This document shows, one piece after another, positions 1,303-46,554 of a stretch of DNA of 64,000 nucleotides. The notes beneath the pieces are model-generated. The model saw only the letters and a program-made list of their open reading frames with translations. It was not told the DNA's origin and did not search any database. The DNA lies in assembly GCA_037128175.1 (NCBI GenBank), contig JBAXWY010000011.1, positions 1 to 64,000 of the forward strand. Reading direction: 5' to 3'. The DNA is from Methanothrix sp. GTDB lineage: Archaea > Halobacteriota > Methanosarcinia > Methanotrichales > Methanotrichaceae. Numbering within the stretch: the first letter of the stretch is position 1; each line of letters begins with the position of its first letter. The translations under genes and the position numbers were made by a program.

Positions 1303-3030
1303 ATGCGCAGCCTTGCTGATATCCGCCTGCTTCTTGATGAACTGAACTGCAAACCAGCCGACGAACTGGAGGACCAGGATCTTGACTTCAAGGAGTGGAA
1401 GGGCCGCAGCCAGAAGGATGCCCTGGAGCTGGTTGTTGAAACTGCGGTTTGCATGGCCAACGGTGGAGGTGGAACAGTCGTATTTGGAGTAAACGACAAA
1501 GCAATGAGTCGTAAGAGGGCCATTCCTGGCGTCCCTCTTGAGGTCGATGTCAACCGCTTGAAAAAAGCGGTATATGACTCCACTGACCCCAAAATCACCC
1601 CTGTCTTCGAAGAGCTGCTCGTGCCTGAGGGATCGGGCCGCTTGCTGGTCATGCAGATATATCCCGGCCTTCCGCCCTATACAGATACAAGCGGCAGAGG
1701 AAAGATACGAATTGGCAAGGACTGCCAGCCGCTAACTGGCACGCTCCGCAGGCGCATCATGGTGGAGACGGGCGAGACGGATTTTACTGCAACGGAAATT
1801 GCCGAAAAGCCTGCATCATGTCTATCCGCTTCGGCGATGGAACAGCTTCGAGAGGCCGCCCGCCGTGAAAAAGCCCCCGCTGAGCTCTTGCAGATGAGCG
1901 ACCTCGATCTCCTGGAAACTTTAGGCGTTATCCACAATAGAAAGCTCACGCTGGCCGGTCTCCTTTTGGCAGGAAAGGCGGAAAATATTCGCGAGCATTT
2001 GCCGGGCTACGGCTGGACTCATCTGCGCATGCGGGATGATACCCAGTATTCAGATCGAATGGATGGCCAGGAGGCCATTCCCTTGGCCATTGCCCGCGTG
2101 CTGGATCGCATTATGGCGAACAATCCCATAACCACCGTTGAACATGGCCCGTTTCATTTCGAATACCGCACTTACCCTGAGATAGCTCTTCGCGAAGCGA
2201 TCATGAATGCCTTCTGCCATGCGGACTTTCGCATGAGCAGTCCGATTCTTGTCAAGCAGTACCCCCGTAAGCTGGAAATCGGCAACCCCGGAGGATTCAT
2301 CGGAGGCATCTCCTCTGAAAATATCCTGCATCACCAGCCGGCCGCCAGGAATCTGCTTCTGGTCGATGCTCTAACTCGACTGCGTCTTGTCAACCGCAGC
2401 AACTTGGGCGTCTCTCGCATGTTCCAGGCCATGCTCATCGAGGGCAAAGAACCGCCCTTAATCCAGGAACAGGTTGATGCTGTGTTAGTCACCTTCCAGG
2501 GAGGAGAGCTATCGGTTCCATTCCGTGCATTTGTAGCGGAGGAGAGCCGACGCGGGAAGGGACTTCTTGTTGATCACTTGCTGATTTTGCAGTACCTTCT
2601 CCGCCACCCAGAGCTGGATACGGCATCTGCTTCACGTATCTGCCAACGATCTGAGGCAGACGCCAGGGAGATCTTGTGCGAGATGGAAATAAAGATGGAA
2701 TACCTGGAGAGAGGTGGGACTGGGCGGGGTACTTACTGGATGCTCAGGCCAGATCTGCATCGTCGATTGGTAGCAGATGGCAGCCCGGAAAGGGACCGCC
2801 GCATTGACTGGGAGGCGGCCAAAACAAGAGTGCTGAGCGTGCTAAAGCTTAGGGCAGAAAGAAAAGAAGCTGGATTATCGAATGCAGAGATCAGGAAGAT
2901 AACTCATCTAGACAGATATCAAGTAGTCCGTTTGATGCGAGAATTAATTTCAGAGGACCCGCTAATCGAACTTATTGGGAAAGGTCGCAAAGCGGCATAT
3001 GTCTATGTCAGCCAAAAGCAAAATGAATGA
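1303..3030 (+). CDS. Schlafen/AlbA_2 domain + RecG-C-like (HATPase_c_4) domain + winged-helix protein
   Basis: EDQDLDFKEW..VCMANGGGGTVVFGVND (AlbA_2); YPEIALREAIMNAFCHADF..IGNPGGF..GVSRMF; C-terminal HTH (LSNAEIRKITHLDRYQVVRLM). Confidence 0.8.
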   Translation: MRSLADIRLLLDELNCKPADELEDQDLDFKEWKGRSQKDALELVVETAVCMANGGGGTVVFGVNDKAMSRKRAIPGVPLEVDVNRLKKAVYDSTDPKITPVFEELLVPEGSGRLLVMQIYPGLPPYTDTSGRGKIRIGKDCQPLTGTLRRRIMVETGETDFTATEIAEKPASCLSASAMEQLREAARREKAPAELLQMSDLDLLETLGVIHNRKLTLAGLLLAGKAENIREHLPGYGWTHLRMRDDTQYSDRMDGQEAIPLAIARVLDRIMANNPITTVEHGPFHFEYRTYPEIALREAIMNAFCHADFRMSSPILVKQYPRKLEIGNPGGFIGGISSENILHHQPAARNLLLVDALTRLRLVNRSNLGVSRMFQAMLIEGKEPPLIQEQVDAVLVTFQGGELSVPFRAFVAEESRRGKGLLVDHLLILQYLLRHPELDTASASRICQRSEADAREILCEMEIKMEYLERGGTGRGTYWMLRPDLHRRLVADGSPERDRRIDWEAAKTRVLSVLKLRAERKEAGLSNAEIRKITHLDRYQVVRLMRELISEDPLIELIGKGRKAAYVYVSQKQNE

Positions 3031-3042
3031 TAAATGAGAGTT

Positions 3043-3089
3043 CACATTTAATATCACAATTATCCTACAAAAATGTGATATGAAATGTG
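3043..3089. promoter_or_regulatory. 18-bp imperfect inverted repeat (terminator or operator)
   Basis: cacatttaatatcacaat (3043-3060) pairs with aatgtgatatgaaatgtg (3072-3089), 16/18 matches, just after the 1303..3030 stop. Confidence 0.45.
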
Positions 3090-3136
3090 TTGTGCCTCAT
3101 TGTCTCACATAGAGCAAAGCATAGATACAATCTTCT

Positions 3137-3616
3137 TTGAGCAGCTTCGCAGTGGCCGTCCGGCACCTTTCTTACGAGCGTAGCTCTGAAACAGACGTTA
3201 TTCTGGTCCTGCAGGGAGGGAAAGCAAACCGGGATTTCGTGCGGCTGGTGGTGGAGGAGAACCAGGCAGGCCGGCCCTTCCGGCTGGATGATTTGCTCTT
3301 GCTTAACCAGTTATGGCGCGATGGCCATTTGGCTGTTTCAGAGGCCGCTTTTGTTCTCTGCTCACACCTACAAGAGACTGGGCCAGGAAGCTCGCATATG
3401 TGCGACAGCGAGGCTTTGAACCGGTTCAAGCAGAGCAGATGGTTGGCCAATGGGAAGATCACACGCAAGCAGGCAGCAGAGCTATGCAAGATCTCCTCAA
3501 CACAGGCATGCGATCTTCTGAGTCGGCTGGTGAAAAAAGGCATTCTGGAAATGCATGGCAGTAAGAAAGGAGACTATTACAAGGATGCATCCAAAAATAT
3601 GGATGAATCCAAATAG
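3137..3616 (+). pseudogene. Degraded C-terminal part of a second AlbA_2/RecG-C/wHTH-type gene
   Basis: FVRLVVEENQAGRPFRLDDLLLL parallels FRAFVAEESRRGKGLLVDHLLIL of the upstream gene; AYVRQRGFEPVQAEQMV lies in another frame; ends in the HTH GKITRKQAAELCKIS. Confidence 0.65.
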
Positions 3617-3921
3617 GATTTGGATGTATCCAAAAAAGGGACATATTTAGTGGATTATGGAATTCTTTTATCAACATCTTGTGTTTTTACCGAATTTTCA
3701 TCCCACTTACAAATGCCTTGGAATAGTTCTATGTCATTTTTAGAATTCTTCAGTAAAATGTAATAGAATAATGCAGGACTTCGTGTACAAGGGCTAAATG
3801 TATTCACTAACTTTAATTATTAATTCTATTATAATATGAATACAACCGCCAGCTTATTCATCCTGCCTTGAAATCCCGTAAGATGCAGGGGGAGACATTG
3901 CCCTGCATAGGTATGATTGAG

Positions 3922-5154
3922 ATGGCATCTTCCTTTACATGGCTTGATTACTCGGAAAAAGAACGGCAGAAGATGCTGGACATCTTGAGTGCCCTAAAAG
4001 AACACGAAACGAGAGACGTGCTGGGGATAGGTGTCATTAGGGATGCCTTCGCAGACATGTTCTTTCCTGGGACCAGTACTATCCAGACCAGAGCCAGGTA
4101 CTTTCTGTTTGTGCCGTGGATGTATAGAAGCATGGAGGAGAAAAAAGTCCTTTCGTCAAAGATAGAAAGGCGGGCAAGAGATGAAGAGGTCCGATTGATT
4201 CGCGCGCTCTTGGCCTCTGACGACACCGATGGCGTCATAGGAAAGGAGGCAAAAGAGAATCTACAACGTCTTCCCAGCAGCATCTACTGGCAGGGCCTTG
4301 AAGCCTGGGGTATCCGGCTCAGTCCCTACTCCATCTCCGATTACCACCGCACCCTAGATGCATTCTACAGATTTGGCAAGGATAGTTCGCACAGCTATGA
4401 AGAGGAGATTGATGGCTGCCAGCGGCGACGCAACTGGCACCCTGGCCTTCCACCGGCGCCTGATGACTTCCCAGGCAAAGCCTCTTTCAGCCTGACTTTT
4501 GAGGAGGCCTGCTATTTGAAGGAGAGAGTACTGACCAGATGGCCAAATACAATGCTTGCATACCTTCTGGACTCCGATATACCATCAGAATCTGTACGCT
4601 TCCCCTGGGAGCATCCCATTTGCTCTGATCTCCCAGAGTCGCTCCGTGAGAGAATTCACCATGCAAGAAACTTCTCAGAGGTCATCAATGGCGCGTCCCT
4701 TCTCTACAACCTCATGCTGGCGGAAAAGGCCAACATTTTAGATCTCCATGCAGATGACGACAAGGTAAGTTACTACGAATATGAGTTGGAGAAATGGGCC
4801 GATTACCTCCAGTCACGTATGGATGAACTTGATCGATGGGACTATAAAAGACGCTTCTGGGAGATCGTATCCCATCAAGGGACGAGGCCGACGGGGAGTA
4901 CGCAGCAGTTCATCAAAGAATGGCTCCAGATGGCTCTATCTCCCATACAGGCTCGGAAGATAGCAGAGAACGAATCCGCAAGGAAGCTTATTCACAAGAG
5001 GGAAAAGCAACTTAAAGGCAATCTCGCCAGACTTGACAATCCGGAAGCGCTTGCCAGGTGGAGTGGCGATGCAGGCACTGGAAGGCTCAGGTATAGATGG
5101 CGCCCTGCTGAGAAAATTATCTCAGATATATTCTCAGGCCTGAGGAGGTCATAA
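3922..5154 (+). CDS. DUF6361-like protein, first gene of a three-gene defence-type operon
   Basis: FTWLDYS..RDVLGIGVIRDAFADMFFPGTSTIQTRARYFLFVPW..LQRLPSSIYWQGL; stop overlaps the next start (TAATG); ATG at 3922 preferred. Confidence 0.7.
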   Translation: MASSFTWLDYSEKERQKMLDILSALKEHETRDVLGIGVIRDAFADMFFPGTSTIQTRARYFLFVPWMYRSMEEKKVLSSKIERRARDEEVRLIRALLASDDTDGVIGKEAKENLQRLPSSIYWQGLEAWGIRLSPYSISDYHRTLDAFYRFGKDSSHSYEEEIDGCQRRRNWHPGLPPAPDDFPGKASFSLTFEEACYLKERVLTRWPNTMLAYLLDSDIPSESVRFPWEHPICSDLPESLRERIHHARNFSEVINGASLLYNLMLAEKANILDLHADDDKVSYYEYELEKWADYLQSRMDELDRWDYKRRFWEIVSHQGTRPTGSTQQFIKEWLQMALSPIQARKIAENESARKLIHKREKQLKGNLARLDNPEALARWSGDAGTGRLRYRWRPAEKIISDIFSGLRRS

Positions 5155-7061
5155 TGCTCGATCCATATGATAGAAGACATCTTATGGAGATCCTCAGGCC
5201 ACCGGATGGATATTCCCTTGACTATGCCATAGGAACTACATTCTCACTTGATCTACTGGCACTTATGACGGCACCCCTTGCCTTCACTATCTTTGAGGCG
5301 GAGTGCGAATCCAGGACGCCCGACCCACTGGCTCTTCTTGAATCCCTCAGGAGATACGCGGGAAGAATCTGCATCTTATGCCATGCTGGTAGGATTCATA
5401 TTCCCAAAGAGGACGGCCAACCCCTCTACTCGTTCCTGGAAGGATCGGTTTTCCAGGCGCTGCCGCAGAGTGGAGAAGGTTCATTCCACCCAAAGGTCTG
5501 GACTTTGCGTTACACCTCAAGAGATAAGCCTGTAGCCTATCGTTTCCTCTGTTTAAGCAGAAATCTTACTTATGACAGATCATGGGACACAGTCCTGGTC
5601 TTCGATGGCATTCTGGCCGATAGGGAGAATGCCTTTTCCTCGAACCACCCAGTCGGTGAATTCATTGCAGCTCTTCCCGGATTGGTAGCGAAGGGTCTTC
5701 CGGAGGATGTGAAAAATAGGATAGAACAGATGCAATATGAGATTCGCAGGGTCGCCTTCGATCTGCCCCAGGGTTTCGAGAGCATGGCATTCCACCCCAT
5801 GGGAATTGATAACAAAAAAGCCAATCCCTTCTCGGGGAGAATAGACAAAATGCTCGTAGTCTCTCCTTTCCTTACGGAGGGCTGTCTTGATCGCCTCGCA
5901 TCCCTTGGAAAGGAATGTGCCCTGGTCTCACGACTTGATAGCCTGCAAAAGGTTTCAGTTGATTGCTTGAGGAGGTTCTCAGAGGTATTTTGCCTCAAAG
6001 AGGATGCTATTTCAGAGCAGGATGGATCTGATCCTGCAATTCCTGAGCAGGCGTTGACGCATATTGAAGACGACCAAGCCTTCCCTGAAGATAACCTCAA
6101 TGATCTGCATGCTAAACTTTACGTGGCTGATGCCGGAACCGAGGGCAGGATATGGACTGGCTCTGCCAATGCAACTGATGCAGCATTCAGCAAGAACGTA
6201 GAGTTTCTTGTGGAGCTGAGAGGAAAAAAGAAGTATTGCGGCATAGACGCGGTGTTGAATGGAGGCAAGGAAACTCAGGACGGAAAGTTGGCAGGTCTTA
6301 GAACTATTCTCGATGCCTTCAGCATTATTGATGGTCCCATTCCCAAAGATGAGAATGAGTCCCTAGAGCGTCTGGCAGAGTTGGCCAGGAGCGAGCTGGT
6401 GAAAGCAGGCCTATCAGCCCGCGTTTCCCAGGATGCTGATGAGCATTTTAGTATCTTCATAGAGGGCATGATCGCGTCCATCCCTGAAGAGGCCTTTATC
6501 ACGTGCAGGCCGATAACCCTGCAAAAGACGCGGGCCATTCCCATCTCGGCCGGACCTGGGGTGCATGCTGAGTTCAGACACATCTTGGATCGGGAGATAT
6601 CTGCCTTCTTTGCGTTTGATGTGACTGTGAGATCTAGCGGCAAGAGCCGGAAAGAGGGATTTGTTCTCAAGCTGCCTCTGGATGGAGCTCCTGCAGATAG
6701 AAATGAGCACATCCTCCGGGCTATGTTGAAGGACAAGAGCCAGGTGCTCAGACTGATGCTGCTTCTTCTTTCTCTTGAAAGAGGATCAAATCCGGCTGAT
6801 ATCATTAATGGGGAATCTGGCCTCGGGAAGTGGCGGCTGGGAGCCTCTGCCGGCATGGTGCCCCTCTTTGAGTGCATGGTAAGGGCAATGGCCGGGGGTC
6901 CGCAAAGGCTAGACGACCTCAACAACCTTATTCAGGACCTGAAGGGCCACTCTGAGACCAAGGATCTCCTTCCCGACGGGATCGATGAGATTTGGGGGCC
7001 AATTTGGGAAGCAAGGAAGATAATGGGAGGAAAAAGCCACGAAGCGACCGGATTGCGATGA
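5154..7061 (+). CDS. Phospholipase D-superfamily nuclease-like protein with two HxK motifs
   Basis: SFHPKVW..LSRNLT and LHAKLYVAD..WTGSANAT. Confidence 0.75.
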   Translation: MLDPYDRRHLMEILRPPDGYSLDYAIGTTFSLDLLALMTAPLAFTIFEAECESRTPDPLALLESLRRYAGRICILCHAGRIHIPKEDGQPLYSFLEGSVFQALPQSGEGSFHPKVWTLRYTSRDKPVAYRFLCLSRNLTYDRSWDTVLVFDGILADRENAFSSNHPVGEFIAALPGLVAKGLPEDVKNRIEQMQYEIRRVAFDLPQGFESMAFHPMGIDNKKANPFSGRIDKMLVVSPFLTEGCLDRLASLGKECALVSRLDSLQKVSVDCLRRFSEVFCLKEDAISEQDGSDPAIPEQALTHIEDDQAFPEDNLNDLHAKLYVADAGTEGRIWTGSANATDAAFSKNVEFLVELRGKKKYCGIDAVLNGGKETQDGKLAGLRTILDAFSIIDGPIPKDENESLERLAELARSELVKAGLSARVSQDADEHFSIFIEGMIASIPEEAFITCRPITLQKTRAIPISAGPGVHAEFRHILDREISAFFAFDVTVRSSGKSRKEGFVLKLPLDGAPADRNEHILRAMLKDKSQVLRLMLLLLSLERGSNPADIINGESGLGKWRLGASAGMVPLFECMVRAMAGGPQRLDDLNNLIQDLKGHSETKDLLPDGIDEIWGPIWEARKIMGGKSHEATGLR

Positions 7062-10000
7062 GATTCTCAAAAGCCTGAAGGATTTCCAAAAGGAAACGGT
7101 AGATTATGTCTTTCGTCGGCTCTATACTGATGATGACTGCACGAAGAGATTCCTGGTTGCCGATGAGGTAGGGCTTGGAAAGACCCTTGTAGCCCGCGGG
7201 GTCATAGCAAAGGCAATTGATCATCTCTGGAAGACAGTTCCCAGAATCGACATCATCTACATCTGCTCTAATTCAAACATCGCCCGCCAGAACATAACGA
7301 GGCTTAATGTTTTGGGAGATGAGCACGAACCACGGTCTTGTCGCATATCCCTGCTGCCGTCGGAGATCAAGGACCTCAAAATTCCAGATGATATGTCGAA
7401 GGATGAGAGCCAGGTCAACTTCATATCTCTCACACCTGGCACTTCCTTCGACATATCATCTGGAACTGGAATCGGGAATGAAAGGGCCCTACTGTATTTG
7501 ATGCTAAAAGACGAATGGAATCTCGATGATGGAATGTCGATGAATGTTTTCCGCGGGGGGATGGAGTTCATGAACTTCTGGAGGCTCGTTAGGGAGTACC
7601 CGAAGAGGCATAGCATCGACCCACATCTGAAGGCGTGTTTTCTGAGCATAGTGCAGGATAGTATGGATGAGGTAATCGGCAATTCCGGCATTAGCTTGAG
7701 AAATAGGGTATTGGAGCTTTCCAAAGTCTTCTCTGACCCTGCGCTTACCGCTGCCTGGAAGAAGGAGATTGAAAAAAAAAGCAATCGGTGCATATCAGAG
7801 CTACGTGCTCTGCTTGTGAGGTCATGTCTGAAGGCGCTCGAGCCGGACCTGATCATTTTGGACGAGTTCCAGAGATTCAAGCACCTCATGTACGGGGAGG
7901 AGGGCGAGGACGAGTCGGCACTGTCCGCCAGAGAGCTTGCCAGGGAACTCTTCTCCTATGCCGATGAAAACTCCGAGGCCAGGGTGCTACTGCTGTCTGC
8001 AACCCCTTACAAAATGTACACGACAGCGGATGAGGCAGGAGTCGAGGACCACTACCGAGACTTTCTAAAAACCTTCGAGTTCCTCGTCCAAAAGCCTGAT
8101 GCGGTGAGGAAGTGCGAGAGTACTATCAAAGAATACAGACAGGAGCTGTTTCGCATTGGTAATGGTGATGAGGCTCGGCCGGTGGATCTGAAGAAGGCTC
8201 TTGAGGCTCAGCTTCGTGGGGTTATGGTAAGGACCGAGAGGCTCGCAGCTTCGGAGGACCGAAATGGAATGCTTATGGAGGTTCACGATGGATCGGCCAA
8301 GCTTAAGCCGGGGGACCTGATAGCATACTGTGGCCTCCAGAATGTAGCCGAATGCCTGAGCAGCCGCGATTCCCTTGAGTACTGGAAATCCTCGCCATAT
8401 CCTCTAAACTTCATGGATAAGTACGAACTGAAGAATGCCTTTGAGAAAGCCTGTTCATATAATGATCGAGAGATTTGCGGCCACTTGTCGGAAGCAGAAG
8501 GACTGCTGCTTCCCTGGGATGATATCGAAGCCTATCGGGAGATAGATCCTGGGAATGCAAGGCTTCGGAGCCTTTTTTCGGGAACCATCGGTGCTAATGC
8601 CTGGAAGCTCCTGTGGCTTCCTCCATCTCTGCCATATTACGAACTGGGATGGCCTTTTGCAGATCCGGAGCTCAGGAAGTTCACAAAGAGATTGGTGTTC
8701 TCCTCATGGAGAATGGTCCCAAGGATGATTGCAAGCCTGACGAGCTATGAAGTCGAGAGAAATATGATTGGTCTCTTTGACACCTCGATTCGAAATACCC
8801 AGGATTCGAGGAAGAGGCTCAGGCCTCTGCTTAAGTTCGCTAGGAGTGATAAAGATGGAAGACTCACAGGATTGCCGATTCTGGGGATCATATACCCAAG
8901 CATAACGCTTGCCAAGGCATGCGATCCACTGAGGATGGCCTCTATGCAATTGCCTTCTGTTGCTGATTTAATTCAGAGAGCACAAATTGAGATTGAGAGA
9001 CTTCTACTGCCTATTGTGGGATCTTCTCCAGAATACGGACCTGAAGATGAGGACTGGTATTGGGCAGGGCCAATACTCCTGGATCTGTATTATCATAGGG
9101 GAAACGCTGAAAGGTTCTTACACAGTAAGGGGCTAGCTGATGTCTGGGGCGGCGAAGAGATCGAGGATGAAAGCGATGACGGTCCATCCCTTTGGAAAGA
9201 GGTAGTCGCAGAGGTCACAGCACTGGTCGATGGAAAGATACGGCTGAAGAGGCCACCGAGGGATCTTTCCCTCGTCCTTGCGAAGATGGCAATAGCAGGA
9301 CCTGGAACAACATGCTTAAGGGCTCTAGCCAGGGTTACGGGCGGACTGTCTACGGACGGTAAATGGGAACCCCTTGATGAGATAAGCATGAGTGCTATGC
9401 GAATGTCTCGACCTTTTATCCGTCTCTTCAACCTGCCCACATCCAATGCCTTACTGCGCGGCCTTTATGCATTGGATTCTCAAGGCGCTCCTGCCTACTG
9501 GCGACAAGTTCTGGATTATTGCCTCGATGGTGGGCTTCAAGCTGTTCTGGATGAGTATGTCCACTTCCTGAAAGAGTCAGAGGGGCTCTTTGGTTATGAA
9601 AGGGGTAAGGCCGCATGCAGGATCTCGGAGGCAGTAGCAGAGGCCTTGAGCCTGAGGACTGCGAGCCTTGATGTTGACAAGATAGACCTTGACGAGAGTT
9701 GCAGATCCATATCAAGGTCGATGAAGAAGATGAGGACTAATTTTGCAGTAATGCTATCAGATAAGAAGAGCGATGAGGGCCAGTCTGAGAACAGGATATC
9801 TCAGGTTAGGAAGGCCTTTAATTCCCCCTTCTGGCCTTTCGTCCTGGCAACCACGTCAATTGGTCAGGAAGGGCTGGACTTTCATGCCTACTGTCATGCA
9901 GTTGTTCACTGGAATCTGCCGTCCAATCCCGTAGACCTTGAGCAACGCGAAGGGAGGATTCACAGATTTAAAGGCCATGCCATACGAAAAAATCTGGCCG

Positions 10001-10344
10001 CAAGGTACGGGCTTTCAGAGATCGGGCCAAATGATGCCGATCCATGGGAGGCACTTTTCAAGGCAGGAAAAAGAGATCGGAAGGACGGATCGGGCGATCT
10101 GGTCCCGTTCTGGATATACCCTCTCGAAGGTGGGGCCAAGATCGAGAGGCACGTTCCAGCATTGCCTTTAAGCCGGGACAGGGAGCGAATGGAGCAGCTG
10201 CAAAAATCCCTGGTCGTCTACAGGATGGTATTCGGGCAATCCAGGCAGGAGGATCTGGCGGCATTCCTGATGAGCCGTTTGGATAAAGTGGACATGGATA
10301 AACTGAGGATAGATTTGAGCCCGCCGCACGATATAAAACAATAA
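7039..10344 (+). CDS. SF2 (SNF2-like) helicase; apparent true start is ACG at 7039, 91 codons upstream of the ORF-track start
   Basis: Walker A ADEVGLGKT lies in frame upstream of 7312; LDEFQ, LSATP, ATTSIGQEGLDF and EQREGRIHR; GGAGG lies 8 nt before the ACG. Confidence 0.8.
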   Translation, partial: TKRPDCDEILKSLKDFQKETVDYVFRRLYTDDDCTKRFLVADEVGLGKTLVARGVIAKAIDHLWKTVPRIDIIYICSNSNIARQNITRLNVLGDEHEPRSCRISLLPSEIKDLKIPDDMSKDESQVNFISLTPGTSFDISSGTGIGNERALLYLMLKDEWNLDDGMSMNVFRGGMEFMNFWRLVREYPKRHSIDPHLKACFLSIVQDSMDEVIGNSGISLRNRVLELSKVFSDPALTAAWKKEIEKKSNRCISELRALLVRSCLKALEPDLIILDEFQRFKHLMYGEEGEDESALSARELARELFSYADENSEARVLLLSATPYKMYTTADEAGVEDHYRDFLKTFEFLVQKPDAVRKCESTIKEYRQELFRIGNGDEARPVDLKKALEAQLRGVMVRTERLAASEDRNGMLMEVHDGSAKLKPGDLIAYCGLQNVAECLSSRDSLEYWKSSPYPLNFMDKYELKNAFEKACSYNDREICGHLSEAEGLLLPWDDIEAYREIDPGNARLRSLFSGTIGANAWKLLWLPPSLPYYELGWPFADPELRKFTKRLVFSSWRMVPRMIASLTSYEVERNMIGLFDTSIRNTQDSRKRLRPLLKFARSDKDGRLTGLPILGIIYPSITLAKACDPLRMASMQLPSVADLIQRAQIEIERLLLPIVGSSPEYGPEDEDWYWAGPILLDLYYHRGNAERFLHSKGLADVWGGEEIEDESDDGPSLWKEVVAEVTALVDGKIRLKRPPRDLSLVLAKMAIAGPGTTCLRALARVTGGLSTDGKWEPLDEISMSAMRMSRPFIRLFNLPTSNALLRGLYALDSQGAPAYWRQVLDYCLDGGLQAVLDEYVHFLKESEGLFGYERGKAACRISEAVAEALSLRTASLDVDKIDLDESCRSISRSMKKMRTNFAVMLSDKKSDEGQSENRISQVRKAFNSPFWPFVLATTSIGQEGLDFHAYCHAVVHWNLPSNPVDLEQREGRIHRFKGHAIRKNLAARYGLSEIGPNDADPWEALFKAGKRDRKDGSGDLVPFWIYPLEGGAKIERHVPALPLSRDRERMEQLQKSLVVYRMVFGQSRQEDLAAFLMSRLDKVDMDKLRIDLSPPHDIKQ

Positions 10345-39166: not shown

Positions 39167-39229
39167 ATTTTTTTAATCGAAGATCTTTGAGTTATGTGAT
39201 CGATCGTAAAAGTCCCGGGTGATCTGCCA

Positions 39230-39281
39230 CGCGGACACGCGCGCGTGCGGGCTCCCGCCGGGACGTGCGCGTGTGTCCGCG
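39230..39281. other. GC-rich long hairpin between the C69 peptidase and tgt
   Basis: 39230-39247 pairs with 39264-39281 (18 bp including three G-U pairs). Confidence 0.5.
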
Positions 39282-39403
39282 CGGCCCTGATCTCGGGAAG
39301 AGCCGGGCCGGAGTAAACAGCTTTTCGGGCGCTGGATTTTGGTAACGGCGGCATTTCGTTTTTACTATTGGCGGATAATTATAACCATACAACTAACGAT
39401 TTC

Positions 39404-39442
39404 ACCACAGAGGCGCAGAGCACTCGGAGGACGAACGGACGG
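39404..39442 (+). repeat. Dispersed 39-bp intergenic repeat, copy 2
   Basis: 35/39 identical to 11860-11898. Confidence 0.6.
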
Positions 39443-39599
39443 GGACGACTATTGCTAAGAGACAGTGCGCTTTTTTCAAGCTTGGCATATTTCGCTCATC
39501 TAGCTTTTTCGGATGCATGTCAAAATGGTCCTGTGCAAGTCATGCAAAAGCTTTTTCCGCCCGCTGGCTGCAAAGGAGGCCTCGGCAGGATAACAATAA

Positions 39600-40841
39600 A
39601 TGAGCGCAATATCTTTTGAGATCTTAAGGCAGGATAAAGAGACACATGCCAGGCTGGGGCTGATTAAAACCAGACGAGGAGATATAGAAACGCCCTACCT
39701 GGTTCCTGTGGCAACAATGGGCAGCGTGAGAGCTTTGGGCTCCGACGATCTGCAGAGTTTAGGCGTGCAGTGCACCCTTGCCAATACCTACCATCTTCAC
39801 CTGAATCCGGGCGATGAGCTGATCGCAAGGTTCGGTGGGCTGCACCGGTTCATGGGGTTTGACCGGCCCCTGTTCACCGATTCCGGCGGCTTTCAGGCAT
39901 TTTCCTTAGGCTTTGCCAGAGAGCATAACATCAGCAAGATCGGCAACATCTTCCCGCAAGATTACAGAAAAAAATATGATGATAGGGAAAACGAAACCGA
40001 GGGGCCTAAGGCGGCGAAGAAGGAGAATTTGACCAAGATCACAGATGAGGGCATCTCCTTCAAGTCCCTTGCCGACGGAGCCTGGCATTTTTTGAACGCA
40101 GAAAAGTCGATGAAGATTCAGTCCAATCTTGGAACAGATATCATCATGGCATTTGATGAATGCACTTCCCCCCTCTCGGATTACGATTACACCAAGAAAG
40201 CAATGCATAGGACCCATAATTGGGCGGAAGAGTCCATTCGATACCACGATAAAAATCAAGCTCTTTATGGCATAATTCAGGGAGGATGGTTTGATGACTT
40301 AAGAAAGGAAAGCACACAGGCCATCTCTGAAAAGCCTTTTGACGGCATCGCCATTGGAGGCTCGCTGGGGAACAGCAAGCAGGATATGCATCAGGTCCTG
40401 GACTGGACCATTCCCAGACTGGATGACGACCGGCCGCGCCATCTCTTAGGCATAGGCGAAATCGACGACATATTTGAATGCGTGGCGCGAGGAATCGATA
40501 CCTTCGACTGCGTCTCTCCCACCAGAATCGCTCGTCGAGGAAGCCTCTTGCTCTCGCCGCAGGCGGGTGGATCGCAGGAGAACAAGTTCCACATAAATAT
40601 CAAAAATTTGCAATTCAAAGAGGACTGCCGGCCCGTCGATCCCAACTGCTCCTGCTCGACCTGCCGCACCTACTCCCGAGCCTACCTTCGCCATCTTTAT
40701 GTCTCCCGGGAGCTGTCCTACTTCCGGTTGGCCACGCTTCACAATCTCCATTTTATGCTCCGCTTCATGGAAGATATCAGGGAAAGCTTAAGAACAGGGA
40801 CATTTGCGCAGCTGAAAGAAAAATGGCTGACAAAGATTTAA
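39600..40841 (+). CDS. tgt: Bacterial-type tRNA-guanine(34) transglycosylase
   Basis: LANTYHL, FTDSGGFQ, MAFDEC, GIIQGG, RPRHLLGIG, DTFDCVSPTR, CSCSTC..LATLHNL zinc site; no archaeal C-terminal PUA extension. Confidence 0.9.
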   Translation: MSAISFEILRQDKETHARLGLIKTRRGDIETPYLVPVATMGSVRALGSDDLQSLGVQCTLANTYHLHLNPGDELIARFGGLHRFMGFDRPLFTDSGGFQAFSLGFAREHNISKIGNIFPQDYRKKYDDRENETEGPKAAKKENLTKITDEGISFKSLADGAWHFLNAEKSMKIQSNLGTDIIMAFDECTSPLSDYDYTKKAMHRTHNWAEESIRYHDKNQALYGIIQGGWFDDLRKESTQAISEKPFDGIAIGGSLGNSKQDMHQVLDWTIPRLDDDRPRHLLGIGEIDDIFECVARGIDTFDCVSPTRIARRGSLLLSPQAGGSQENKFHINIKNLQFKEDCRPVDPNCSCSTCRTYSRAYLRHLYVSRELSYFRLATLHNLHFMLRFMEDIRESLRTGTFAQLKEKWLTKI

Positions 40842-40842
40842 A

Positions 40843-41562
40843 ATGCAGATAAAGACCGAGGGCCAGGACGAATGTGAGGGCCAGAAGACGTTGAGAGCCA
40901 ATGCCAGCAGGCAGAAGGGCGGCAAATTAGGGATTGATCGGACTCAGGCCACCATAATTCTCTCCGGCCTTTACCTATTCTTCTCCCTGGCAGGCAACAT
41001 CGCTGCCACCAAGGTCACCTACTTCGGCGGCCTGGTCATGGATGCCGGATTCATTTACTCTCTAACCTTCACCTGGCGCGACCTGATCCATAAGCAGCTC
41101 GGAGAGAAGGCGGCAGTCACCACCATCTGGCTGTCGGCAGCCGTCAACCTGCTCGCGGCACTTTATTTTCAGCTGGTGGTCCTGATGCCGGCGCAGACGG
41201 ATTGGGCGAATGGCGGAGGGCAGATTGCCTGGGAATTTCTCTTTTCCCTGCAGATGAGGATTGTACTGGCATCCATCCTCACGGCACTAATTGCCGAGCT
41301 GATTGACACGAAAGTCTATCAACTCTGGACGCGGGGCGGCAGGGAAAAATGGCCGCAATGGACGCGGGTCTTCGCCTCCAATTCCGTCTCCATTCCCGTG
41401 GACAGTCTGCTCTTTCCCATCATCGCTTTTGCCGGGGTTGTGGGTGCACAGGGCTTGCAGCAGATGGTCTGGACCAACATCATCGTTAAAGCGCTGGTCA
41501 CCGCGCTGGTCTTCTGGACGATCTATCTGGTGCCGGAAAAGCCGATCTATGGAGATGAGTAA
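40843..41562 (+). CDS. yhhQ: YhhQ/VUT-family queuosine-precursor transporter
   Basis: GNIAATK, IYSLTFTWRDLIHKQLGEKAA, RIVLASILT..IAELIDT, RVFASNSVSIPVDSLLF; 1 nt after tgt. Confidence 0.85.
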   Translation: MQIKTEGQDECEGQKTLRANASRQKGGKLGIDRTQATIILSGLYLFFSLAGNIAATKVTYFGGLVMDAGFIYSLTFTWRDLIHKQLGEKAAVTTIWLSAAVNLLAALYFQLVVLMPAQTDWANGGGQIAWEFLFSLQMRIVLASILTALIAELIDTKVYQLWTRGGREKWPQWTRVFASNSVSIPVDSLLFPIIAFAGVVGAQGLQQMVWTNIIVKALVTALVFWTIYLVPEKPIYGDE

Positions 41563-42611: not shown

Positions 42612-43301
42612 TCACACTGGGCCCGAGAGTCGAATGTTATTTACAGATACTTCTGCTGGAAATCCTGATGGAACATTCATATAAACATCGTCCCAATAGT
42701 CATATACACCATTGCCATTTACATCGAAGAAGCAAAGGCCTGGACCCGGAAATGTCACTGAGATGGGGGCCCCAAATACTAGGTTTAAGTCAGGCTCAAA
42801 ATCGTGCACTTTGGTTCCCGGCTTCAATCCTGTTCCTACAGTTGCATTTAACCTTACATCATTAACAACACTATTTGGACCGGCTTGGCTGAAATAAACC
42901 GGATCCATTAAATCATAGAGCGGACTTCCGAAAAGGTTAAGAAAACGAATTGCTTTGGTTGGCGGAAAAAAAGCCAATGGCATTCCAATATCATTATCTA
43001 CAGGAGTTACCTTTGATCCTGCCGGAAGATTCCCAAAAGGAGTCAGCCTCAGGTCATTAGCTGTAGAAAAAAATCCAGGTAGCACTTTAATATAAACAAC
43101 ATCAGTATCATCATATCCGGGTACAACTCCCGTATCCCAGAAGCGGATGTCTGTAGTAGCAGGCATCGCGAATAGCGGTCTTCCAATATCCTTATCTACT
43201 GCAAGTACTTTTGTTCCGAATTGATATTCTGAAGCCCCAACCAAGCCCAAAATCAAATATAGGCTAATAACCATGGCCACAGTCTTTGTGCTCAATCTCA
43301 T
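42612..43301 (-). CDS. Secreted protein with three (D/N)xxGxYD..D.VY..N(D/N).RL repeats (putative Ca-binding)
   Basis: FWDTGVVPGYDDTDVVY, FLNLFGSPLYDLMDPVY, FFDVNGNGVYDYWDDVY. Confidence 0.7.
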   Translation of the reverse strand: MRLSTKTVAMVISLYLILGLVGASEYQFGTKVLAVDKDIGRPLFAMPATTDIRFWDTGVVPGYDDTDVVYIKVLPGFFSTANDLRLTPFGNLPAGSKVTPVDNDIGMPLAFFPPTKAIRFLNLFGSPLYDLMDPVYFSQAGPNSVVNDVRLNATVGTGLKPGTKVHDFEPDLNLVFGAPISVTFPGPGLCFFDVNGNGVYDYWDDVYMNVPSGFPAEVSVNNIRLSGPV

Positions 43302-43450: not shown

Positions 43451-44512
43451 TTACAGGATTGGCCCAGAGAGGCGCACATTATTTACCGTCACAAGGCCCT
43501 TCGACACGCCAGCAGGCACATTCAAGTATACATCGTCTTCGTAGTCATAGACTCCGTTGCCGTTTACATCGAAGAAGCCCATCTTTGTAGTATCTGTGGC
43601 AGGTCCAAGGAAGCTCGCTAAGGGTGGCCAAGATACCAATTTATTTTGATCTGCGTGAAAATTCGTAACCTTTGTCCCTGCGATCAGATTTCCCATTGAG
43701 CTCAATCTAACATCATTGGTTTGGATAAACTGAGCAGAAGGATCTTTCCACCTACTACCAGTAGATCCATCATCCTGGCTAGAGTCATCAGCTACCATTT
43801 TTGGGATTTGAATCTTTATGAGCCAGGTTCCAAGAACGTGATAATAGTCTGCCTTTAAGCCGCGAACCACTTCAATGGCCAGTCCCCGCATTTCGCCAAC
43901 TTTCCTTGGCCTTTTATCGAGGATTTTATCCGAAATGAACAATTTATAATTATCTGTAAATAGGGCATAACTTAAACCATGCGAATAGATCTCTCTGCCT
44001 CTGTAGGGAAGGCGCTCGCTAAAGCCTGTCATCATATTGGCAGAATTTTCAGAATCGTCAAGATAAGAATAATCATCATTGGGAAAATGGTGCAGGTAAA
44101 CAGGATCATCGAGATCGTATGCGCGGCTGCCATGCAGATCCAGAAAGCTGATTATCGAAGGCAGCTGCTTTATCGGCTTATTCATATCATAATCATGAAA
44201 TGTCACCTTTGATCCGGGAGACGCATTAGCAAAAAAAGTCAGTCTTACGTCGTTGGCGTTGGTTGTGCCGCTGGCAGAAGGCCCGATGTGCAGATAAACC
44301 GGGTCTCCTTCATCATATCCGGGAGTTCCGATATCCCAAAAGGCCATAGTTGTCTCAGCCGAAAGAGGAAAAAGGGGTCTGCCTATATCAGATTGATTCG
44401 GCAAGACTTTGCTGCCGAAAGGATAACCCGAACTGCTTGCTGGACTTAGCATCACGATTATGCTTGCCAATAAAAGTGTCCATATCAAGCTCTTCCTTTC
44501 CTGCACAAACAT
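43451..44512 (-). CDS. Paralog of the previous gene with an inserted domain of about 120 aa
   Basis: Same three repeats plus an insert containing FTDNY..KRPRKVG..ADYYHVLGT. Confidence 0.7.
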   Translation of the reverse strand: MFVQERKSLIWTLLLASIIVMLSPASSSGYPFGSKVLPNQSDIGRPLFPLSAETTMAFWDIGTPGYDEGDPVYLHIGPSASGTTNANDVRLTFFANASPGSKVTFHDYDMNKPIKQLPSIISFLDLHGSRAYDLDDPVYLHHFPNDDYSYLDDSENSANMMTGFSERLPYRGREIYSHGLSYALFTDNYKLFISDKILDKRPRKVGEMRGLAIEVVRGLKADYYHVLGTWLIKIQIPKMVADDSSQDDGSTGSRWKDPSAQFIQTNDVRLSSMGNLIAGTKVTNFHADQNKLVSWPPLASFLGPATDTTKMGFFDVNGNGVYDYEDDVYLNVPAGVSKGLVTVNNVRLSGPIL

Positions 44513-44820
44513 CCGCTCACTCCTCCCATTTCATTCCATTAACAATTATTGAGCTTTAACTATTAATATTTTATTATATTTTTTATCAAATATACATTAA
44601 TTATAATTCGGATGTTGCGGTTCTATTCAGGGAGATTGATGGAAATTATGGCCACATAAACAATCTGGCCGCTGAAAAGGCCACTGCCATAGCTCGTGCC
44701 AATTGAGGGAATCGTCCCCGAAAATTTGGCTTTCACCTATGAGTGGAACAGCAACGTCGCACCCGCACAGTTCTGCTCTGGGCCATGCAAGGGGCCGCCA
44801 CTGTTTCACCGAATAATTTT

Positions 44821-44963
44821 TTTACCGTAACAATGTTTTTCGACACACCAGCAGGCATATTCAAGTATACATCGTCTTCGTAGTCATAGACTCTGTTGCC
44901 GTTTACATCAAAGTAGCCCATCTTTGCGCTACCTGTTGCCTGTCCAAGGAAGCTCGCTAAGGG
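44821..44963 (-). repeat. Orphan 143-bp copy of the 3' end of 43451..44512
   Basis: 17 mismatches over 143 bp versus 43482-43624 (manual count). Confidence 0.8.
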
Positions 44964-45066
44964 AGGCACATTAGCAATTAATAAAATATCTATAATAATA
45001 TAATAGATAAGTATTTATACTATGGGTTCATTATATTAAAGAGACATATCGAAAGGTGATGGGAAT

Positions 45067-45875: not shown

Positions 45876-46554
45876 TCACTCGATTTTCTTTCTTTTGGGC
45901 GTCTCAGCCTTCTCAAGTTCTTCTTGCTTTTTGGCCTGGATCTTCTTGATGCTTTCCGCCTTCGGTAAATCTTCGGGCATTGTGCCTCCCAATTCCTGGA
46001 TGGTTTGTCGTACTTTTTGGCCGACTTTACGATGTGTCAGGTTCGCCGCGTCTTTCCCCAACACCCCATCCCTGCGCAGTTTTTCCTCAGCCTGGGTTGC
46101 ACGAAACAGGTTTGCCGCCAATTCCGTGCTGCCTATGTGATCTAGAATCTTCTGGCTCTTTTTCAAGCATTTTCGCCGGTGGATGTCTTCCTGTTTCAGT
46201 CCGCCGTAAAGCCCCACCATGCGCTACGATTTCCTTTTTGGGATCGGCGTTCTGGATAGCCAGGTAGCAGGCATAACGAGAAAGCAACGTAACCTTAATT
46301 TCCCGGCTTGCGCCACTCCCAATCTCGACCATTTTGCTAATGTCAGCAAAATGGTCCTCAATGCGATGCCCACTGTTAAAACACGCCAGCTTGGCCTTCT
46401 CGATCACGGCCTCGAAATTGCGGTATTGCGTGTATTCCAGAACCTCGGCCAGATCGCGGCTTTCCCAATACTCGTTATTCGCATCATTCGTCCGCTTTAT
46501 CCGCTCGAAAGGCGACAGAAGGCCCCCGGGGGCTTTCTTTATTTCTTTGCTCAT
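45876..46554 (-). pseudogene. dinD: DNA damage-inducible protein D with internal deletion and frameshift
   Basis: EYWESRDLAEVLEY..LSRYACYLAIQNADPKKEIVAHG joined out of frame to GLYGGL..ILDHIGSTELAANLFRATQ. Confidence 0.85.

Follow-up and report, generated by a model that had tools for sequence, protein, structure and literature searches.

The window, a 64,000-nucleotide stretch of one contig of the methanogenic archaeon Methanothrix sp., carries a gene for a bacterial-family tRNA-guanine transglycosylase (TGT) and, separated from it by 1 nucleotide, a gene for a YhhQ-type transporter. Queuosine is treated as a bacterial and eukaryotic modification, and archaeosine as the archaeal one, in textbooks and in the specialist literature. 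The features of the pair are as follows.

39600..40841, plus strand: tgt, 413 amino acids, ATG start; bacterial-family tRNA-guanine transglycosylase of a non-canonical kind ("type B")
39912..40025, plus strand: subgroup-specific insert, residues ~105-142 of the TGT, after TDSGGFQAFSLG, with the conserved start GFAREHNISKIGNIFPQ
40350..40379, plus strand: substrate-pocket loop of the TGT, where AIGGSLGNSK replaces the canonical GGL[AS]VGE
40843..41562, plus strand: yhhQ, 239 amino acids, ATG start; Vut_1/COG1738 queuosine-precursor transporter of the tgt-linked subtype

Judged by its profile scores, the TGT is an enzyme of the bacterial position-34 family and neither an archaeal TGT (arcTGT) nor a DpdA. 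It scores 477.4 bits on the NCBIfam model TIGR00430, "tRNA guanosine(34) transglycosylase" (cut-off 306.75), and 433.5 bits on Pfam TGT (PF01702). The arcTGT model TIGR00432 gives 130.5 bits, below its cut-off of 350, and the DpdA model NF041059 gives 32.7 bits, below its cut-off of 200. The protein has no PUA or other C-terminal extension (C1/C2/PUA), and no Dpd-type domains occur among the open reading frames (ORFs) of the window. Among solved structures, the TGT of Zymomonas mobilis is the best match (~305 bits); human QTRT1 reaches ~234 bits and the Pyrococcus arcTGT 58. An AlphaFold2 model from a 22-sequence alignment (predicted local distance difference test score 88.2, below 50 for residues 108-140; predicted template modeling score 0.87) has a predicted TIM-barrel fold with a C-terminal zinc subdomain. 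Foldseek matches this model to the Z. mobilis TGT with a template modeling score of 0.93, a root-mean-square deviation of 1.5-2.0 Å and 39% identity. The catalytic aspartate motifs TDSGG, AFDECT and TFDCV (the last with Asp280) are retained, and Asp102, Asp156, Gln203, Gly230 and Asp280 of Z. mobilis align to D94, D186, Q227, G254 and D303 of the window protein. The zinc site CxCxxC...H is present as C350/C352/C355/H381. We infer that the enzyme would exchange G34 in tRNAs with a U33-G34-U35 context.

The YhhQ protein scores 112.6 bits on Vut_1 (PF02592; cut-off 27.2) and 75.7 bits on TIGR00697, "queuosine precursor transporter" (cut-off 50.95). Its gene is the sole Vut_1 gene in the genome.

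An earlier note, made from the window sequence alone, had described a 413-residue TGT with bacterial motifs and no PUA extension, followed after 1 nucleotide by a YhhQ/VUT transporter. The ORFs, the profile scores and the spacer all agree with that description. The note also read the pocket loop as AIGGSLG instead of the preQ1-type sequence, which the alignments bear out, and saw neither queA nor queG in the window, where we found none either. Among the ways in which this picture might fail, it had named clustering of the protein with arcTGT or DpdA, for which both models score far below cut-off, and a bacterial mis-assembly of the segment. The latter is excluded because genes of archaeal or methanogen type lie on both sides of the pair (RadA, RPA, the primase large subunit, DUF2114, DUF2113, MCR operon protein C [MCR_C] and MetRS), its G+C content (0.505-0.508) fits the range of the window (0.42-0.575), and the exact TGT protein is present on 6 contigs. 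The contig carrying the pair (C11) is 69 kb long, in an assembly of 2.96 Mb and 98 contigs that is 99.81% complete and 0.91% contaminated; the NCBI names of near-identical proteins are Methanothrix.

Within the genus, tgt is above cut-off in 30 of 36 congeneric genomes; as for the other six, either the assembly is incomplete or only a broken or partial copy is there (G013, G017, G021, G031). In the complete genome G015, tgt is split in two. The gene is lost now and then within the genus. The split or fragmentary copies lie at G015:C43:10380-11622, G017:C2:23204-24525 and G021:C1:95584-95874, in genomes of 99%, 82% and 93% completeness. In two further families of the class, all 24 genomes examined lack tgt. 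Where loci were fetched, yhhQ lies directly behind tgt in all 12 from Methanothrix, and the two genes are adjacent in 5/5 loci of three other Methanotrichaceae genera and in 4/4 ANME-1 loci. All 12 Methanothrix copies have the loop GGSLGN[SC]K. Three Methanothrix tgt copies were flagged as having "1 TAG inside"; these are terminal stop codons, so recoding was rejected. The ratio of nonsynonymous to synonymous substitution rates (dN/dS; six congener pairs for each gene) lies at 0.11-0.24 in tgt and at 0.09-0.30 in yhhQ; since these values are well below 1, both genes are under purifying selection.

There is also some evidence of transcription. Ten RNA runs were listed with small shares (0.05-0.19) of sampled words, of which four, from four studies, were examined. 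All four have contigs that align with portions of tgt (92-100% identity); one of the runs also has contigs for yhhQ, one of which crosses the tgt–yhhQ junction. Uncovered parts carry no weight here, and the evidence for transcription is weak because DNA carry-over is possible. Taken as a whole, the pair is real and conserved, and it is probably functional.

Two TGT types in archaea

The pocket loop sets the window TGT apart from its canonical relatives. Enzymes with the preQ1-type loop GGL[AS]VGE have Leu231, Ala232, Val233 and Glu235 (Z. mobilis numbering). In the window TGT the loop reads FDGIAIGGSLGNSKQDM, with GGSLGNS opposite the GGLAVGE of Z. mobilis; it does not match the preQ1 type, and Glu235, a residue that supports preQ1 recognition, is absent. 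Tyr258 is replaced by His and Met260 by Leu, both in the window TGT and in its subgroup. Cys158, which stands with Asp156 in AFDECT, is kept. In a gapped, MAFFT-type alignment, which is ambiguous here, the subgroup loop is one residue shorter than that of canonical TGTs.

Two inserts further mark the subgroup. The first follows TDSGGFQxFSLG, after the Asp102 strand, and is ~38 residues long in the window TGT; canonical TGTs have ~13 residues at this position vs 30-80 in the subgroup. The HMMER match to the Z. mobilis TGT is broken at query residues 104-142. The tail of the insert is charged and variable in length: after GFAREHNISKIGNIFPQ, length and composition differ among the 12 Methanothrix copies, whose proteins range from 413 to about 455 amino acids. 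The second insert, of ~10 residues (SPxxGGxxxNKF), follows PTRxARxG.

To place the window TGT, we examined 401 Halobacteriota genomes. A bacterial-type TGT (bTGT) above the TIGR00430 cut-off is present in 64 of them, so that a premise of rarity in archaea would be too strong; queA is present in 7. These TGTs fall into two types. Families with the GGSLG-loop TGT account for 57 of the genomes above cut-off, none of which has queA; the remaining seven, from families with the canonical loop GGL[SC]IGE, are exactly the seven with queA. The window type occurs in our genome, in 10/12 Methanotrichaceae, 37/64 Archaeoglobaceae and 8/54 ANME-1 genomes, and in one further family. Its proteins have 397-470 amino acids, and the loop is GGSLG[NKQ][SC]K wherever examined (Methanothrix, other Methanotrichaceae genera, ANME-1 and Archaeoglobaceae). 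The queA holders belong to three families, which exact matches show to be Methanoperedens, ANME-2 and a Methanocellales-labeled group. Their TGTs are 371-381 amino acids long and 32-35% identical to the window TGT, the loop is GGL[SC]IGEPK in the three sequences examined, and queA lies directly beside tgt in 5/5 loci fetched. The PTRxAR segment is invariant across both types.

A similar pattern appears in bacteria. Among the matches listed for named genomes, queA lies within 3 kb of tgt in 0/13 loci with Glu-less GG[STVC][LF] loops vs 42/67 others. The 13 Glu-less loci, again among the matches listed, come from Saccharibacteria and other candidate phyla radiation (CPR) bacteria, Solirubrobacterales and one alphaproteobacterial metagenome-assembled genome (MAG). 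The GGSLG-type TGT and queA are anti-correlated.

Bacterial-family TGTs in archaea have been reported before. Castelle et al. (2021) describe QueA, QueH and Tgt co-localized in 34 archaeal genomes, from DPANN and "some Methanosarcinales", and take this as a sign of queuosine (PMC8204110, in the part available). The canonical-loop genomes of our sample (Methanoperedens, ANME-2 and Methanocellales-like) match that type. The window type shares with it a bacterial-family TGT in an archaeon. However, the TGTs of the reported type have ~366-371 amino acids and the order queA-tgt-queH (PMC8204110, same part), whereas the window type has neither queA nor queH, another loop and a transporter as its partner.

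The tgt-linked transporter and the history of the pair

Vut_1 genes are common in the sampled phylum. They occur in 180 of the 401 genomes, among them those of haloarchaea and Methanosarcina without a bTGT, and a Vut_1 gene alone is uninformative on queuosine. Yet the copies linked to tgt form a group of their own. Between the window YhhQ and the copies beside tgt in Methanothrix thermoacetophila and ANME-1, identity is 64-74%. Taken together, the Methanotrichaceae and ANME-1 copies linked to tgt share 64-74% identity with one another but only 21-32% with any other archaeal copy tested, and they score ~105-113 bits on the Pfam model vs 150-197 for the others. M. thermoacetophila and one ANME-1 genome carry both kinds, and their second copies were included in the 21-32% comparison. 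Judging from these identities, the YhhQ linked to tgt is a paralogue of its own.

In ANME-1, this paralogue accompanies the TGT. All eight TGT-positive genomes have two Vut_1 matches or one low-scoring match, and where these genomes were fetched the tgt-linked gene stands beside tgt (4/4). Among the TGT-negative genomes, a low-scoring Vut_1 is found in only 2/46, both of them fragmented assemblies. Archaeal COG1738 proteins have been proposed to salvage preQ0, and YhhQ of Escherichia coli is a preQ0 transporter (PMC5372724, in the part available). The presence of two Vut_1 paralogues in one cell suggests two substrates. The tgt-linked paralogue plausibly carries the TGT's own substrate, which would differ from the preQ0 that the common Vut_1 is proposed to carry for archaeosine.

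A different arrangement is seen in some Archaeoglobaceae and a related family (L030-L034, L046, L056), in which tgt-adjacent Vut_1 genes are divergent or convergent in orientation. Many of these Archaeoglobaceae-type genomes hold two high-scoring Vut_1 copies.

In a library of representatives at 50% identity, the closest full-length sequences are 51-54% identical to the window TGT, and a few short fragments are closer. Many of these representatives have the Glu-less loop and the 30-80-residue insert. The subgroup is common to Archaeoglobaceae, DPANN archaea, CPR bacteria and some Actinomycetota. In an IQ-TREE phylogeny of 62 sequences, 47 form a non-canonical group that stands apart from the canonical TGTs with 98% support in the Shimodaira-Hasegawa-like approximate likelihood ratio test (SH-aLRT), and Methanotrichaceae group with ANME-1 at 99%. 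Both groups were recovered by FastTree from 137 sequences. Archaeoglobaceae are sister to Methanotrichaceae/ANME-1 in FastTree (86) and group with DPANN in IQ-TREE (92). The canonical-type archaeal TGTs lie with canonical bacteria in FastTree and outside the non-canonical split in IQ-TREE, their exact placement differing. We rooted the trees with arcTGT as outgroup; the two root positions differ because the outgroup branch is long, and we draw no inference on which type is older.

The closest named relatives of the window TGT are archaeal: ANME-1 at 67-70% identity and Archaeoglobaceae at 51-57%. Named members near its clade are Archaeoglobus fulgidus AAB89762.1, Geoglobus, Archaeoglobus sulfaticallidus, an Aenigmatarchaeota MAG and a Nanoarchaeota MAG; CPR bacteria fall within the same large TGT group. 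In both trees the ANME-1 pair (L042-L045; G108, G124, G168, G331) lies among the Methanotrichaceae genera. Because of this nesting and of the identity to the window proteins (67-70% for TGT, 65-68% for YhhQ), the data suggest that the whole tgt–yhhQ pair was transferred between ANME-1 and Methanotrichaceae, from archaeon to archaeon. Within Methanotrichaceae, tgt is old, since it is present in 4/5 sampled genera. The earlier note had called the pair a horizontally acquired module. As stated, this is unsupported, given that the pair is family-wide in Methanotrichaceae and its closest named relatives are archaeal; with its adjacency in all 12 Methanothrix loci, its purifying selection and its recurrence in other Methanotrichaceae genera and ANME-1, it is neither a recent nor an isolated acquisition.

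Candidate bases for position 34

In the genome, an arcTGT (601.7 bits) and an ArcS-like paralogue lie on contig C50, and QueC (227.7 bits) and QueD (110.5 bits) are present; archaeosine is therefore served separately from the window pair. A genome search for queA, queG/queH and arcTGT, which the earlier note had proposed as a check, found arcTGT as above and gave no match to queA, queH or queF in this 99.81%-complete genome. For queG there was no match above cut-off (best 44.7 bits vs 200); Methanocaldococcus jannaschii and Methanosarcina acetivorans were among the genomes matched by the same model in a control search. Thus, as far as its gene content tells, the cell should be able to make preQ0 for archaeosine but neither to make preQ1 nor to mature preQ1-tRNA to queuosine. 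Salvage of a base would be a sensible reading, because the genome has none of the enzymes that make preQ1 or mature it to queuosine. The candidate target tRNAs are at hand: the genome has genes for tRNA-Asn(GTT), -Asp(GTC), -Tyr(GTA, with an intron) and -His(GTG), all of which read T-G-T at positions 33-35.

The interpretation that we favor, at slightly under even chances, is that the pair forms one operon that salvages a 7-deazaguanine base, most likely queuine, and inserts it at G34. A YhhQ-type permease would import the free base released by neighboring bacteria, and the TGT would put it in place of the wobble guanine (G34, between U33 and U35) in tRNA-Asp, -Asn, -His and -Tyr. The inserted base would be the end product, because QueF (preQ0 to preQ1), QueA and QueG/QueH (preQ1-tRNA to Q-tRNA) were not found; queuine would give Q34 directly, as in eukaryotes and Chlamydia. 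In bacteria that have a bTGT but no precursor pathway and no QueA, queuine salvage is expected (PMC5699537, in the part available). A queuine-import module is what the earlier note had proposed. The position-34-family TGT, its operon with a YhhQ-family transporter and the lack of genes for preQ1 and queuosine maturation speak for base salvage; the horizontal acquisition that was part of the proposal is unsupported as stated. What we infer here is which tRNAs are modified, which way the permease works and which base is inserted, with queuine as the working hypothesis. More tentatively, it is possible that, beyond this genome, the Glu235-less TGT clade and a transporter paralogue of its own serve to place a scavenged base of the queuosine family at the archaeal wobble position.

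Several observations weigh against salvage of queuine. To our knowledge, a 7-deazaguanine at position 34 has never been shown in any archaeal tRNA. The cell makes preQ0 itself (QueC, QueD), so that an endogenous substrate is available. The gene is dispensable, being broken or fragmentary in some Methanothrix (G015, G017, G021). The same TGT subtype occurs in hyperthermophilic Archaeoglobaceae, mostly without an adjoining Vut_1 (present in only 5/12 loci of one set and 1/5 of another), and where one adjoins it is a different paralogue, 25-30% identical to the window YhhQ. Q_salvage/DUF2419 (PF10343) has no match in the genome, although it has none in 14 control genomes either and is thus uninformative. 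The loop itself is equivocal. The published queuine signature is GG[LS][AS]G, with Val233 changed to Gly, vs GGLAVG for the preQ1 type (PMC11570991, in the part available). GGSLG agrees with this signature at 4/5 positions, in an ungapped alignment only; MAFFT and one HMMER alignment put a one-residue deletion there, and Val233 aligns to Gly or, in the gapped version, to Leu. The loop is not of the preQ1 type GGLAVGE and fits the queuine type only in part, and Glu235, which both known types have, is missing. Finally, the window TGT retains Cys158, a position taken by Val in the queuine enzymes of eukaryotes (PMC5699537, same part).

Alternatively, the TGT may insert preQ0 at position 34, either the cell's own QueD/QueE/QueC product or preQ0 imported by YhhQ, to give a preQ0-34 tRNA or a further archaeal derivative. 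We consider this unlikely. In its favor, the genome encodes QueC and QueD, preQ0-making Archaeoglobaceae have the subtype as well, and preQ0 is what E. coli YhhQ carries and what archaeal COG1738 proteins are proposed to salvage (PMC5372724, same part). The L231/A232 specificity pair is altered, as it is, differently, in the preQ0-using arcTGT, yet the window loop is unlike the Val-Val pair of that enzyme (PMC5699537, same part). A second Vut_1 paralogue tied to tgt beside the common one would also be hard to explain if both carried preQ0. Moreover, related enzymes occur in CPR bacteria and DPANN archaea, which usually have no preQ0 synthesis.

Still less likely is that preQ1 is salvaged and inserted with no maturation, leaving preQ1-34 in the tRNAs, as proposed for Bartonella and Pelagibacter. 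These set a precedent for preQ1 use in genomes limited to tgt and a transporter, but they retain the GGLAVG loop (PMC11570991, same part), which the window TGT does not. The window TGT keeps Cys158, part of the small bacterial pocket, but has lost Glu235.

A different target, be it another tRNA position, rRNA or DNA in the manner of DpdA, or a novel 7-deazaguanine derivative, seems improbable. The two private inserts and reshaped pocket of the subgroup, the branch that separates it from canonical bTGT (98% SH-aLRT) and the TGT family's plasticity (PMC5699537, same part) would allow for one. Nevertheless, the DpdA score is only 32.7 bits vs 200 and the window ORFs hold no Dpd-type domains, the score on the arcTGT model falls well short of its cut-off while another locus of the genome encodes a full arcTGT, and the PTRxAR segment is among the residues invariant across both TGT types. 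That the pair is bacterial contamination, a mis-assembly or a decaying, functionless relic is hardly credible: split or fragmentary copies do exist (G015, G017, G021, G031), but archaeal core genes flank the pair on its 69-kb contig, the exact protein recurs on 6 contigs, 30/36 congeners are above cut-off, dN/dS is well below 1 and both genes have intact frames.

The proposed operon for queuine salvage resembles known systems in part. Direct queuine salvage of the Chlamydia trachomatis type, by a bTGT and QPTR/YhhQ, was reportedly described by Yuan et al. in 2019. The genotype is the same, with tgt and a COG1738 transporter but no QueA, QueG, QueH or QueF, and in both cases the loop departs from GGLAVGE and starts with GG[LS] (for Chlamydia: PMC11570991, PMC5699537, same parts). 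In contrast to Chlamydia, the host here is an archaeon that would also make preQ0 and archaeosine. Its loop, GGSLGNSK, has Leu in fourth place, no Glu235 and possibly one residue fewer; its TGT has two subgroup-specific inserts, and its transporter is a separate paralogue. With the canonical TGTs of Z. mobilis and E. coli (PDB 1PUD, 1Q2R), the window TGT shares the predicted fold, the catalytic Asp, the zinc site and the absence of PUA. It differs from them in the replaced L231/A232/V233/E235 loop, in Met260 to Leu and Tyr258 to His, in the inserts of ~38 and ~10 residues and in having no QueA partner. arcTGT, which acts on G15, and DpdA, which acts on DNA, belong to the same superfamily and share its chemistry; the window TGT scores far below both cut-offs and has no C1/C2/PUA, and the genome holds its own arcTGT. 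The "putative queuine tRNA-ribosyltransferase" AAB89762.1 of A. fulgidus, which has carried this annotation from the genome sequence onward, is of the same subgroup (403 amino acids, loop GGSLGKSK, 54-55% identity) and likewise in a family without queA. Archaeoglobaceae differ in that only some have an adjoining Vut_1, of a different paralogue (27-30% identical).

The annotation of the gene as Tgt or "putative queuine tRNA-ribosyltransferase" goes back years, both in Methanothrix and in A. fulgidus. Our literature search, made mostly by title and abstract, found no functional study of AAB89762.1 and nothing on queuosine with Methanothrix or Methanosaeta. Nor did we see in print that archaeal TGTs come in two types, that there is a Glu-less subgroup strictly apart from queA, or that this subgroup has a dedicated transporter paralogue; Methanothrix rows may stand in the supplement of PMC8204110, part of which was available. 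If the proposal is true, the third domain of life, too, has queuosine or a close relative. Methanothrix, a methanogen of global importance, would then rely on bacterial neighbors for a translational micronutrient that pure-culture tRNA surveys would have missed, which would amount to a cross-domain micronutrient dependency in syntrophic methanogenic communities. It would also define substrate rules for a large uncharacterized TGT clade that includes CPR bacteria and DPANN archaea. The question is testable, because the subtype is conserved and under selection, never occurs with queA and is bound to its own transporter in Methanotrichaceae and ANME-1. Cultivable hosts are available in Methanothrix soehngenii, M. 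thermoacetophila and A. fulgidus.

Surroundings of the pair

The nearest neighbors of the pair are a C69 peptidase and secreted proteins without assigned function. Upstream of tgt lies one further feature.

39167..39599, no strand assigned: upstream intergenic region with a G+C-rich hairpin and a copy of a dispersed repeat

The hairpin (~39213-39298) is near-perfect, lies just downstream of the peptidase gene and has a predicted fold of -61.2 kcal/mol; it may be a terminator or part of a repeat element. The repeat copy (~39264-39480), between the peptidase gene and tgt, includes an AT-rich, TATA-like stretch. A blastn search with the intergenic region gave 36 further matches of 42-166 nucleotides at 74-92% identity, on 20 contigs of the genome; several lie close to contig ends, and four are consecutive on contig C44. 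Rfam gave no match at gathering score anywhere in the window; hence there is no preQ1 riboswitch upstream of the pair, and the repeat has no Rfam family.

Three other regions of the window deserve mention. A cluster at 1303-10344 comprises a Schlafen/AlbA_2 and HATPase_c_4 protein, a DUF6361 protein, an unannotated ORF of 635 amino acids and a helicase-C protein of 1010 amino acids; it looks like a defense or mobile island. On the minus strand, 42612-43301, 43451-44512 and 44733-44969 encode paralogous predicted secreted proteins without a Pfam match, the third being a fragment, that have a common C-terminal motif, FFDVNGNGVYDYxDDVY(L/M)NVP...VNN(I/V)RLSGP. Also on the minus strand, 46087-46554 encodes a BRO-N domain protein, of a family frequent in viruses and mobile elements, next to a multi-PAS hybrid histidine kinase of 1317 amino acids.

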